Shown here piece after piece: positions 11,630-28,422 of a DNA stretch of 32,000 nucleotides. The stretch is from Caldivirga maquilingensis IC-167 (GTDB taxonomy: Archaea > Thermoproteota > Thermoprotei > Thermoproteales > Thermocladiaceae), in the NCBI RefSeq assembly GCF_000018305.1, contig NC_009954.1, forward strand, positions 1,380,001 through 1,412,000. Direction: 5' to 3'. Every line of letters begins with the position of its first letter. Position 1 is the first letter of the stretch. The notes under the pieces were generated by a model. The model searched no databases. It saw only the letters and a program-made list of their open reading frames with translations, and had not been told where the DNA came from. Position numbers and translations under genes: made by a program.

Positions 11630-11797
11630 GGTGTTATTAAATTCATGTTAGTGAAAGTTGAGTGGTTGTTCAGCACGGTTAGTGTCTTCACCTATCAATG
11701 GAAAGACCCGTAGCTCATCACTCCCTACGGTTAATTGCTTTAAGGGTTTAAATTAATAGCGTTAATTCAGTTAATTAATGAAGTGTCTGTATGATTT

Positions 11798-13438
11798 TTA
11801 ACCAACTACTTTTGCCTGGTTAATCTCCTGGATTAGCTTCATTGGTGTGAATCTCTGCTCAATGCCCTGGTTCTTAAGGTTGGCTATTATTTCATCTAAT
11901 CTATCCTCTATTTCATTAACCCTCTTCTCAATGTAGTTTATGAAGTAGTTTATCCCAATCTTAACTGGGAACAGTAATGGTCCCTTCAGGTAGAATTTAT
12001 TCACAATATCCCTTGACCAGTAGACTGAGTGCCTAAAAATAACCCTGAGGAGTTCAATATGCTCTGGGAGTAGGTTATACCTATATAGCCATCCCTCCTT
12101 ATCAGTTCTAACGTGATTCATTGGTACGTAGAATAGTGGTACGACTAGGCTCCTGTATGGTTTAATTCTCTCAATGAGTTCAATTGTCTCATTAACGTCA
12201 TCAGCAGTCTCCCCGGGTAAACCAACTATAATGGTTAAGGCTGGTATTAGCTTAATCTCATGCATTATTGACAACGCCTCAGTGACCACGTCCCACCAAT
12301 TCTCAATCTTATATGGTGCAGCCTTACCAGGCATTATTAACTTAGCTAATCTACGTGACCCGGTCTCCAAGCCAACCTGCGCACCCCACCATTCCTGGTT
12401 CTCATCCTCAATAATCTCAGCTAGCTTACTCATTAGCTTACCCTGCATTTTCTCACCGTAAAGCACCGCGGCGAGGGTTGTGTGGCTCCAGGCAAGGGTC
12501 TTATAGTACCTTTTAGCAAGTTTATGTAACTCAATCAGTTTCTCAGGCTTAGGTATTATTGTTGGTGAACCGTATAGTGGAACATCCTCGGAGTGAATTA
12601 ACCCATTAACCACACCATTCCTCACATTAACCTTAAGCTCCTCCTCAATCTTACTTAAGGGGTACCAGCGTAGTGCCCTTAATGTGACTGAACAGAAGGC
12701 GCAACTCCTAGGGCAACCGCGCCCAATCTCCACAAGCCCATTAACGGACGCACCCTTAATCGTCTTAATCTCATCAATGCTTGGTGAATCCCTCCTACCC
12801 AAGTAAACGTACCTGGGGAGTGGATCCCCATTAAACACCCTCTTAGCTAAATCAACAACGGCAACATCACCCTCACCATCAAATACCAGGTCAATCCCAT
12901 AGTAGTTCATGATTTCAGGGAAGTAGAGCCACTGCCAAGCTGAGGGGCCGCCTACGAAGACCTTAAGTCCATTAGTCTTCTTAGCGTCATCAATGTAGGG
13001 CTTAAGGTTATTCATCGTCTTCCTGAAGAGGTAAGCATTCAACGGTTCCTTACCCACTATAACGGCCCATGTGGATGATGGTGGGTTAAGGCCGAAGTAA
13101 TCATGGTGACTGAGCATAAGTATCTTAGCCCCATTCTTAATGTACTTAGCCACGTAATCAGGATCAATAACAGCAGCCTTAAAGCCGGCTTCAATTAATG
13201 CAGCCTCAATCTTCCTTAAACCGTAGGGGGCCTCCCTAGGCCTACCAAGTCTATCAACCTTAGGCTTAGGTGCAGCTAACCAAACGTGGAACCACTCGGA
13301 GAGTCTATGGAATGGGCCTAGGGAGACGAAGATTGGGCCTGTAGATAGGAAGCCTAGGAATTCCTTACCATGGTGATTAGTCATCATTGATCTATCCGTT
13401 GTTAGCACTATATCAAGTGATTCACTTTCCTTAACCAT
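11798..13438 (-). CDS. radical SAM enzyme with N-terminal Rossmann/B12-binding-like domain
   Basis: CxxxCxxC cluster motif in EIGRGCPRSCAFCSV. The N-terminal ~200 aa follow an alternating beta/alpha pattern (ILMLSHHDYFG, LKVFVGGPSA) as in class B radical SAM enzymes. 546 aa. The subfamily cannot be assigned by eye. Confidence 0.8.
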   Translation of the reverse strand: MVKESESLDIVLTTDRSMMTNHHGKEFLGFLSTGPIFVSLGPFHRLSEWFHVWLAAPKPKVDRLGRPREAPYGLRKIEAALIEAGFKAAVIDPDYVAKYIKNGAKILMLSHHDYFGLNPPSSTWAVIVGKEPLNAYLFRKTMNNLKPYIDDAKKTNGLKVFVGGPSAWQWLYFPEIMNYYGIDLVFDGEGDVAVVDLAKRVFNGDPLPRYVYLGRRDSPSIDEIKTIKGASVNGLVEIGRGCPRSCAFCSVTLRALRWYPLSKIEEELKVNVRNGVVNGLIHSEDVPLYGSPTIIPKPEKLIELHKLAKRYYKTLAWSHTTLAAVLYGEKMQGKLMSKLAEIIEDENQEWWGAQVGLETGSRRLAKLIMPGKAAPYKIENWWDVVTEALSIMHEIKLIPALTIIVGLPGETADDVNETIELIERIKPYRSLVVPLFYVPMNHVRTDKEGWLYRYNLLPEHIELLRVIFRHSVYWSRDIVNKFYLKGPLLFPVKIGINYFINYIEKRVNEIEDRLDEIIANLKNQGIEQRFTPMKLIQEINQAKVVG

Positions 13439-15864: not shown

Positions 15865-15940
15865 GGCCCCGGTAGTGTAGCCTGGTATAACACGCGGGCC
15901 TGTGGAGCCCGTAACCCGGGTTCAAATCCCGGCCGGGGCC
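15865..15940 (+). tRNA. tRNA-His (anticodon GTG)
   Basis: Full cloverleaf. Encoded G-1 is at 15865. The acceptor stem is GCCCCGG/CCGGGGC, the D stem GTGT/ACAC, and the anticodon stem CGGGC/GCCCG. The anticodon loop is CTGTGGA with GTG at 15902-15904. The T arm is CCGGG-TTCAAAT-CCCGG and the discriminator is C73. There is no intron and no encoded CCA. Confidence 0.93.
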
Positions 15941-16178
15941 ACCAGGTGAAGAATCCTTACCTTCACTAAATCATTACATTAAAATACAATTAAGGTGCTA
16001 ATTACCCACCATGGGCTTAAGGAATGCGTTAAGTAAGGTAAATGAAGAACACGTAGGCTATGGAATTAGTATCAGGGGTGAATAGTAGGGTATTAGCTTC
16101 TCTCATAATTATTTTCAACGTCCTTATCATGCGTTTCCACACTCATTGATGGTAATTAATCCACCTAGTTACTGAACC

Positions 16179-26648: not shown

Positions 26649-26662
26649 TTTAATTGGGTAAA

Positions 26663-26672
26663 GGTTAAATAG
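26663..26672 (+). promoter_or_regulatory. TATA-like box (GGTTAAATAG) for rpl14
   Basis: Centred 27 nt upstream of ATG 26694. Confidence 0.4.
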
Positions 26673-26693
26673 ACCAGGTTAGCGTGTTTCACT

Positions 26694-27128
26694 ATGGCTA
26701 AGAGAGGTGGACCGCGTACAGTAGGTGTACCGTGGAGGTTTCATTTAACGCCAGGAATATTCATGAATAGTCTAGTTAATGTTGCCGATAACAGTGGTGC
26801 GAAGGTGGTTAAGGTAATTGGTGTTGTTGGTCACTACTCTAAGAACGTGCATAGAAGGATACCCGGGGTTAGCGTGGGTGATATGGTTGTGGTTAGTGTT
26901 CAGGAGGGTAAGCCTGAAATGAGGAAGCAGATACTTAGGGCTATTGTGGTTAGGCAAAGGAGACCCTTCAGGAGGCCTGACGGTACGTGGGTTGCCTTTG
27001 AGGATAATGCAGTAGTTATAGTTACCGAGGAGGGGCAGGTTAAGGGAACTGAGGTTCATGGGCCAGTTGCCATGGAGGCCGCTCAGAGGTGGCCTCAAGT
27101 AGCCTCAATAGCAACCATGATTATTTAA
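26694..27128 (+). CDS. rpl14: 50S ribosomal protein uL14
   Basis: [26 protein letters not shown], ...[29 protein letters not shown]. The match to uL14 (L14/L23e) is unambiguous. Confidence 0.95.
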
Positions 27129-27138
27129 AACATTGAGT

Positions 27139-27191
27139 AGTGATGAGTGCCAAAGACCTGACTCGGTGAGTGAGGGATTTGAACGCTGACT
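27139..27191 (+). ncRNA. C/D box sRNA (dual guide)
   Basis: The element reads ag-[G]TGATGA (C box, 27140-27146), then the 11-nt guide gtgccaaagac, then CTGA (D', 27158-27161). A 5-nt linker leads to TGAGTGA (degenerate C', 27167-27173), the 12-nt guide gggatttgaacg, and CTGA (D, 27186-27189)-ct. The flanking AG/CT can form a 2-bp closing stem. Box order, the 11-12-nt spacers and the ~53-nt size are canonical for archaeal C/D sRNAs. It starts 11 nt after the rpl14 stop. Confidence 0.78.
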
Positions 27192-27408: not shown

Positions 27409-28422
27409 GTGGGTTGGCTTAACCACAGTGTTGAATACGTAATGAAAATAATTGTATTTACTAAGGATGGTGAATTACCTAGGGAGTTCACTAAGAGTGA
27501 TGAAGTGGACTCATACCCCCTTACCACTGATGAAACCGTCTTCTCAAGGTATGACTTCATCGGGGTACTTGGCACTGATAGGTTTATACTCAGTGCCCTT
27601 CATAAATTAGCCGGGGTGGATAAACCAATAATAACCATAGGCTACGGTGCAGGTTACTTGAATACTATTAATGTTACGGATTTCGGTGATTTAATGAGTA
27701 GTCTTAAGAAGGGTAATTACACCGTTGAGGCGATACCAACCTTAACCACTGGTCAAGGTTACGTTGCGATTAATGATATTGTCGTAGCACCCACCAGGAG
27801 CGCTACTTTAATGGAGTACACGCTCATTATAAATAATGAATTCGCATGGAGGGATAGTGCTGATGGCTTAATAATAGCCACACCAATAGGTTCAACGGCC
27901 TATGCCCTTAGTGCCGGTGGTGTACTCATATACGGTGGCTTAAGGTCCTTTGAAATAGTACCAATTAATTCAACAAACATAGCCAGGGTTCCAGTCATAG
28001 TTCCTGATGATTCAAGAATAGTGATTAGTGACTTACTTTCAAGAAGTAAGATAGAGGTTATTGCAGATGGATTAGTTAGGAGGAGTGTCAACACAACGAA
28101 GGTAACTGTATTTAAGGGTCCTGAAATTAAACTAGTTAAATTATCCACAGCCACTGCCCTTGACCGCTATAGAAGGATTATTGAATCAATGATAAGTGAC
28201 CTACCTCCAAGCGCTAAACTAATACTTAAGGTACTTGAGTACGAGGGTCCATTAACGCCTAAGGAGATTATTGAAAAGACACTCATACCTCAAAGGACTG
28301 TTAGGGCATCATTAAGATTACTCCTAAGGAAGGGGTTGGTTAATAGGCTTATAGTGCCAAGGGGTAGTAGTAGGTTGGTTGCATACGCGATAAGTAATGG
28401 AACTAAGCTTAACATTAAGTGA
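27409..28422 (+). CDS. nadK: NAD kinase-like protein with C-terminal winged helix-turn-helix domain
   Basis: NadK motifs are present: NDIVV and ADGLIIATPIGSTAYALSAGG. The GGDGT motif is replaced by VLGTDRFIL (27562-27585). The C-terminal 74 aa (28198-28419), LPPSAKLILKVLEYEGPLTPKEIIEKTLIPQRTVRASLRLLLRKGLVNRL, look like a MarR/ArsR-type wHTH. The likely true start is ATG 27442 (MKIIVFTKDG). Confidence 0.65.
   Translation: MGWLNHSVEYVMKIIVFTKDGELPREFTKSDEVDSYPLTTDETVFSRYDFIGVLGTDRFILSALHKLAGVDKPIITIGYGAGYLNTINVTDFGDLMSSLKKGNYTVEAIPTLTTGQGYVAINDIVVAPTRSATLMEYTLIINNEFAWRDSADGLIIATPIGSTAYALSAGGVLIYGGLRSFEIVPINSTNIARVPVIVPDDSRIVISDLLSRSKIEVIADGLVRRSVNTTKVTVFKGPEIKLVKLSTATALDRYRRIIESMISDLPPSAKLILKVLEYEGPLTPKEIIEKTLIPQRTVRASLRLLLRKGLVNRLIVPRGSSRLVAYAISNGTKLNIK

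Follow-up and report, generated by a model that had tools for sequence, protein, structure and literature searches.

In the window analysed here, a stretch of 32,000 nucleotides of Caldivirga maquilingensis IC-167 (NC_009954.1, positions 1,380,001 to 1,412,000, forward strand), the gene rpl14 (26694..27128, +; ORF assignment, PF00238) encodes the 144-residue ribosomal protein uL14. The protein is 97% and 94% identical to its counterparts in Caldivirga sp. UBA161 and MU80, respectively, and an exact match was found only in two Logan assemblies. At 26649-27128, rpl14 stands alone between genes for a 624-residue membrane protein and an NAD-kinase-like protein, and is not part of a ribosomal-protein operon. 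The downstream gene (27409-28422, +) encodes an NAD-kinase C-terminal domain, with a weak C-terminal match to a MarR-type winged helix in Pfam. Following rpl14, in a region that is intergenic on either strand according to the ORF list, lies a candidate small RNA (sRNA) at 27140-27189 on the plus strand, the first element of which begins 11 nt (27129-27139) after the uL14 stop codon TAA (27126-27128).

Box architecture of the candidate sRNA

As read from the sequence, the RNA starts with a canonical C box (RUGAUGA) of the form GUGAUGA at 27140-27146, followed by the 11-nt D' guide GUGCCAAAGAC at 27147-27157 and a canonical D' box CUGA at 27158-27161, which is kept in the copies of Caldivirga, Thermocladium and the Thermoproteaceae metagenome-assembled genome (MAG) L011. 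The spacer CUCGG (27162-27166), corresponding to the loop of the K-loop, leads from D' to a degenerate C' box, UGAgUGA (27167-27173), which differs from UGAUGA by a 1-nt insertion; an alternative reading of C' is GUGAGUG at 27166-27172. The 12-nt D guide GGGAUUUGAACG (gggatttgaacg in DNA letters) occupies 27174-27185 and is followed by the D box CUGA at 27186-27189. In archaeal box C/D sRNAs, the guide spacers usually measure about 10-12 nt and the whole RNA about 50-60 nt. Here, box C to box D spans 50 nt, and the two guides of 11 and 12 nt fall within the usual archaeal range. On re-reading, the layout C-11 nt-D'-5 nt-C'-12 nt-D given in the initial annotation, placed 11 nt past the uL14 stop, proved exact. 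Its description as a textbook arrangement is apt for the C, D' and D boxes and for the spacings, but not for the non-canonical C' box, which the Rfam C/D models also align as UGA-g-UGA with a 1-nt insertion. Degenerate C' boxes are common, and this one has no effect on the target prediction, because the target is counted from box D.

A comparison with C/D covariance models, proposed in the same annotation, gave a divided outcome in Rfam: the layout aligned end to end, and all scores stayed below the gathering thresholds. No family was assigned to the sRNA at gathering level in searches at gathering and permissive thresholds, nor did any of seven orthologous loci yield a gathering-level match. 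The best score was 15.4 bits against a gathering threshold of 42, with E values of 0.3-3.5 reflecting a generic C/D similarity. The models sR2 (RF01139), sR5 (RF01304) and sR3 (RF01133) align with the RNA end to end in box layout and length, at 10-15 bits against gathering thresholds of 40-42; the likeness lies in the boxes only, and the sRNA is therefore not a member of these families. Folding gave no significant secondary structure (z = -1.15) and no terminal stem at the sRNA, and the lack of a significant fold is as expected for an unstructured guide RNA.

The boxes are individually short and the Rfam scores lie far under gathering, which raises the question of a chance cluster of short box motifs next to a T-arm-like string. 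Against this, the four-box regular expression without any guide constraint matched once in the window and in 0 of 300 shuffles, and the full pattern matched once against 0 in 100 dinucleotide shuffles. In addition, the arrangement is conserved in 18 other Thermoproteales genomes, as described below. We regard a chance origin as extremely improbable and effectively refuted.

A second candidate box C/D sRNA is present in the window at 11668-11725 on the minus strand, in an intergenic position 3' of the ORF 11798..13438(-). It shows the boxes C GUGAUGA, D' UUGA, C' GUGAAGA and D CUGA, and matches the Rfam model sR28 with an E value of 2.6e-4, below gathering. The D' guide of this candidate, CGGGUCUUUCC, is complementary to GGAAAGACCCG, a string that we take to be the conserved stretch of domain V of 23S rRNA.

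Predicted pairing of the two guides with tRNAs

The D guide can pair, in antisense orientation, with tRNA positions 52/53-63. The only target that the window offers is tRNA-His(GUG) (15865..15944, +), a gene that encodes its own 3' CCA at 15942-15944. With the T-arm of this tRNA, GTTCAAATCCC (GUUCAAAUCCC; 15920-15930), the guide forms 11 contiguous Watson-Crick pairs from G53 to C63. Counting five nucleotides back from box D gives g27181, whose pairing partner is C15923. In the structure line of the Rfam tRNA alignment, C15923 is base three of the 7-nt T-loop and thus C56. Both the 11 pairs with tRNA-His and the placement of C56 by the N+5 rule had been put forward from the sequence beforehand; the former held upon recounting, and the latter agreed with the Rfam alignment.

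Two tRNAs were compared with the D guide: the tRNA-His of the window, the only one from the host, and a tRNA-Val from Pyrobaculum. The T-arm of the latter carries G57 and forms 10 Watson-Crick pairs and one G-U pair with the same guide; therefore, both common variants of the T-loop are tolerated by the guide U that faces position 57. ARAGORN, with introns allowed, detected no further tRNAs in the window or in the Thermoproteales loci. In one Pyrobaculum MAG (L018, 1205-1443, -), an intron-containing tRNA-Val gene follows the Cm56 guide on the same strand, the guide being 81 nt upstream. We consider it very probable that the segment 27140-27189 (+) specifies an archaeal box C/D sRNA of about 50-55 nt, the D guide of which targets tRNA C56.

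A possible tRNA target of the D' guide did not figure in the initial annotation. The guide GUGCCAAAGAC is antisense, at 11 of 11 positions, to GUCUUUGGCAC, nucleotides 30-40 of tRNA-Gln(UUG). This target reads as an anticodon arm, with the pairs G30-C40 and U31-A39, the loop CUUUGGC and the anticodon UUG, and the N+5 nucleotide counted from box D', a27153, stands opposite U34. A metagenome scan for GTCTTTGGCAC plus a T-arm returned at least 120 loci. Of the 121 matches listed, 114 were identified by ARAGORN as tRNA-Gln(ttg), and the tRNA-Gln genes among the matches listed were mostly bacterial-looking. A viral scan for the D' target gave no match, and the target string had no significant match elsewhere in the window.

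The Caldivirga copies vary in this guide. The window and UBA161 have A at the D' N+5 position, and MU80 and RSNS23 have G for A exactly there, which would be Watson-Crick to C34 of tRNA-Gln(CUG). The D' guide of UBA161 shows an A-to-G change at which pairing with U31 is kept as G-U. We hold the case for position 34 of tRNA-Gln as the predicted target of the D' guide to be evenly balanced. In Lui et al. (2018), the Pyrobaculum sRNA family sR27 is predicted to target U34 of tRNA-Gln (PMC6009581), and would share with the Caldivirga D' guide its predicted target, the wobble position of tRNA-Gln(UUG). In Pyrobaculum, sR27 is reported as a separate sRNA family, whereas the Caldivirga guide shares one RNA with the Cm56 guide.

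Conservation and genomic setting in the Thermoproteales

A scan of one genome per species across 185,579 species with the pattern TGATGA-N15-30-TGA-N0-8-GGATTYGAACNCTGA gave 26 matches, 18 of which belong to the Thermoproteales: three Caldivirga, three Thermocladium, four Pyrobaculum and eight MAGs labelled Thermoproteaceae, Thermoproteales or Thermoproteota. No Vulcanisaeta-labelled genome was among the matches. In all 19 Thermoproteales copies (the 18 scan matches plus the window), GGAUUUGAACG followed by CUGA is identical, the N+5 base is Watson-Crick to C56, and the guide string is framed exactly by the C' and D boxes. Most invariant columns of the alignment of these copies (A1) are imposed by the scan pattern, and the invariance of UGAUGA in box C holds by construction. 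However, two positions left free by the pattern are also invariant in 19/19 copies, namely the Y position, which is always T, and the base beside box D, which is always G. In the eight matches from outside the order, the base beside box D reads C, C, T, C, A, G, A and C. If relatives had lost the boxes or the complementarity to the T-arm, this would have spoken against the guide, as named beforehand; the opposite was seen, the D guide being kept in 18 Thermoproteales genomes.

The other guide and the flanks are less constant. The Caldivirga copies are almost identical to the sRNA of the window. Between clades, the D' guide changes from GUGCCARAGRC in Caldivirga to UAGAUCACUAA or CAGAACACGAG in Thermocladium, a CAGGCAGAUGA-type sequence in Pyrobaculum and GAGGUAGAAGGA in a MAG clade, and the flanks of the sRNA are unrelated. 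Given that the D' guides and flanks diverge while the D guide stays identical, selection acts on the T-arm guide specifically.

The eight matches outside the Thermoproteales, seven in bacteria and one in a Lokiarchaeum, bear on a further reading, by which the string is a minus-strand relic of a tRNA 3' half, for instance at an integration att site. The minus strand of the window indeed reads CGTTCAAATCCC, and on inspection of the sequences the bacterial matches appear as reversed tRNA genes; several of the eight outside matches look like a tRNA T-arm read in reverse, with no D'/C' frame. In the Thermoproteales, by contrast, none of the sites overlaps a tRNA gene and the string keeps its exact frame of C' and D boxes throughout. 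Neither ARAGORN nor Rfam found a tRNA or tRNA fragment on either strand at the window locus, and the flanks CAGCG and CCCTC are unable to form a T-stem; the element is therefore not a tRNA relic. The chance that this reading is correct is practically negligible, and it is effectively refuted.

The sRNA is linked to rpl14 in seven genomes, in which uL14 is 70-97% identical to that of the window. It lies directly 3' of rpl14 in the window, in Caldivirga UBA161 and MU80, in the Thermoproteaceae MAG L011 and in all three Thermocladium genomes. It is absent downstream of rpl14 in the Vulcanisaeta and Thermoproteus/Pyrobaculum-MAG loci. In Thermocladium modestius (L017, 3050-3486, -), tBLASTn reports rpl14 as two segments that overlap, which suggests a frameshift or a draft-assembly error.

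Archaeal promoters have a TATA box centred near -26. In the window, the TATA-like sequence TTAAATA (26665..26671, +) is located 26 nt upstream of the rpl14 ATG, a distance that suggests a leaderless mRNA; it is likely the promoter of a leaderless rpl14 transcript, which may run into the sRNA. In the copies not linked to rpl14 (L012, L013, L018, L027, L010, L024, L031, L016, L021 and L015), TTTAAA-type boxes precede box C by about 25-33 nt; these copies thus look like independently transcribed genes. The only TTTAAA-type box of the Caldivirga copies overlaps the rpl14 stop codon, 11-16 nt before box C, with its end 11 nt from that box; no TATA box is found at the canonical distance of about -26 from the Caldivirga sRNA, the only candidate being too close. 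The lack of a well-spaced box of its own, combined with the leaderless-mRNA geometry of rpl14, suggests read-through from rpl14, with subsequent trimming to the RNP-protected core. Lui et al. 2018 (PMC6009581) discuss such a route for sRNAs that lie in sense orientation at the 3' ends of genes.

This setting could also fit a K-turn element in the rpl14 3' UTR that binds L7Ae and regulates the stability or translation of the mRNA, with no guide function in trans. The element begins 11 nt past the rpl14 stop with no canonically spaced promoter, its linkage to rpl14 is kept in three genera or clades, and L7Ae-binding K-turns in archaeal mRNAs have been discussed (PMC6009581). Nevertheless, the same RNA occurs away from rpl14 with promoter-like boxes in Pyrobaculum and in a MAG clade, and a regulatory K-turn would have no need of an invariant 11-nt antisense match to tRNA. 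We thus judge a purely regulatory element to be very unlikely, and retain the box C/D guide as the preferred reading.

Proposed function and relation to known Cm56 systems

The protein aTrm56 is a SPOUT methyltransferase (COG1303, PF01994; PDB 2yy8, 2o3a and 8x6k). Renalier et al. 2005, as cited in reviews, reportedly described a Pyrobaculum aerophilum box C/D sRNA that guides Cm56 formation in tRNA. Almost all Archaea make Cm56 with aTrm56, and in P. aerophilum, from which this enzyme is missing, Cm56 is made by a C/D sRNP; reviews up to 2021 treat the sRNP route as an exception confined to P. aerophilum (PMC7912444, PMC6313347, PMC5372735, PMC2651775, PMC5372725). The present scan indicates that the same guide is conserved in Caldivirga, Thermocladium and Pyrobaculum, as well as in several uncultured lineages of the Thermoproteales. 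Literature searches that combined Trm56 or Cm56 with the Thermoproteales, Caldivirga, Vulcanisaeta or Thermocladium returned nothing relevant.

We searched for the enzyme itself with two queries, PH0461 (an exact match to PDB 2yy8_A) and 8x6k_A (read off an alignment). By tBLASTn, aTrm56 had no match in the window or in 25 related loci (about 150 kb), which cover a small part of any genome. A protein search with 8x6k_A retrieved 2,772 PF01994 proteins, and the best 120 of these 2,772 were Thermoplasmata-like. In the Caldivirga genome, aTrm56 has likely been replaced by the guide RNA. The restriction of the guide to the Thermoproteales is as expected if the enzyme was replaced there, and is no proof of it.

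Conversely, the RNA may be a genuine C/D sRNA in an organism whose Cm56 is made by aTrm56, the guide then being redundant, a chaperone of pre-tRNA folding or directed at another target. The aTrm56 search covered the window and some 150 kb of related loci, and Lui et al. 2018 (PMC6009581) note guide-target interactions whose role may be in folding instead of methylation. On the other hand, every copy has an N+5 base that is Watson-Crick to C56, Pyrobaculum, a genus with a documented sRNP route, carries the identical guide, and the guide family is restricted to the Thermoproteales. We thus consider a role other than Cm56 formation to be unlikely.

Based on a guide function in Cm56 formation, we propose a putative model for this locus. 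In Caldivirga, the sRNA is probably transcribed together with rpl14 and trimmed to its protein-protected core. It would then assemble with L7Ae, Nop5 and fibrillarin, as in other archaea. The D guide would pair with the T-arm of new tRNAs, from G53 to C61-63, ahead of or during folding of the T-loop, and fibrillarin would methylate the 2'-OH of the nucleotide that faces the N+5 base of the guide, converting C56 to Cm56. As tRNAs hardly vary at positions 53-61 and the guide U can pair with A as well as with G at position 57, one guide can serve most tRNAs. In this manner, the C/D sRNP would stand in for aTrm56. The D' guide probably directs 2'-O-methylation of the wobble U34 in tRNA-Gln(UUG).

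If this model is true, a guide RNA replaced a protein enzyme once, early in the order, and has been kept since. The locus would also represent a case of a tRNA-modifying guide riding on a ribosomal-protein transcript, and a possible dual tRNA guide for C56 and the wobble position of tRNA-Gln. A reduced type T RNase P is also specific to the Thermoproteaceae, including Caldivirga, and in a model of the P. aerophilum RNase P the tRNA C56 stacks on a T-loop base of the S-domain, as in the T. maritima RNase P structure (PMC13462272). The occurrence of type T RNase P and RNA-guided Cm56 in the same lineage may speculatively be seen as a linked remodelling of T-loop recognition. Tentatively, and with less confidence than in the guide assignment itself, we suggest a wider scenario, in which RNA-guided Cm56 is ancestral to the whole Thermoproteales and the guide became a passenger of the rpl14 3' UTR in Caldivirga and Thermocladium. 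In this scenario, the Caldivirga RNA would be a dual guide for C56 of nearly all tRNAs and for the tRNA-Gln wobble position, with the A/G exchange at N+5 switching between the UUG and CUG isoacceptors, and type T RNase P in the lineage, the counterpart of which in other organisms touches the tRNA T-loop at C56, would hint at the linked T-loop remodelling.

Compared with aTrm56, the sRNP would yield the same product, Cm56 in archaeal tRNAs. The two systems are unrelated in mechanism and ancestry, one being a stand-alone protein and the other an RNA-guided fibrillarin RNP. The closer counterpart is the Pyrobaculum guide, to which the initial annotation had already likened the Caldivirga RNA. This equivalence is supported by the D guide GGAUUUGAACG-CUGA, which is identical in four Pyrobaculum genomes (L012, L013, L018 and L027), where GGATTTGAACGCTGA lies inside a C/D frame. 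Like the reported P. aerophilum sRNA, the Caldivirga RNA has a D guide complementary to the T-arm, with C56 at the N+5 position. Judged by sequence, the Caldivirga RNA is set apart by three local features: its linkage to rpl14, a D' box of canonical form with tRNA-Gln as a plausible target, and the 1-nt insertion in C'. Its D' guide is GUGCCAAAGAC with a canonical CUGA, whereas the Pyrobaculum D' guide is of the CAGGCAGAUGA type with a degenerate D' box; its C' box, unlike that of the Pyrobaculum guide, contains the insertion; and it lies directly 3' of rpl14, whereas the Pyrobaculum copies stand behind a TTTAAA box of their own. Thus, the Caldivirga RNA is best filed as a further member of the known Pyrobaculum type of Cm56 C/D guide, with the mechanism unchanged.
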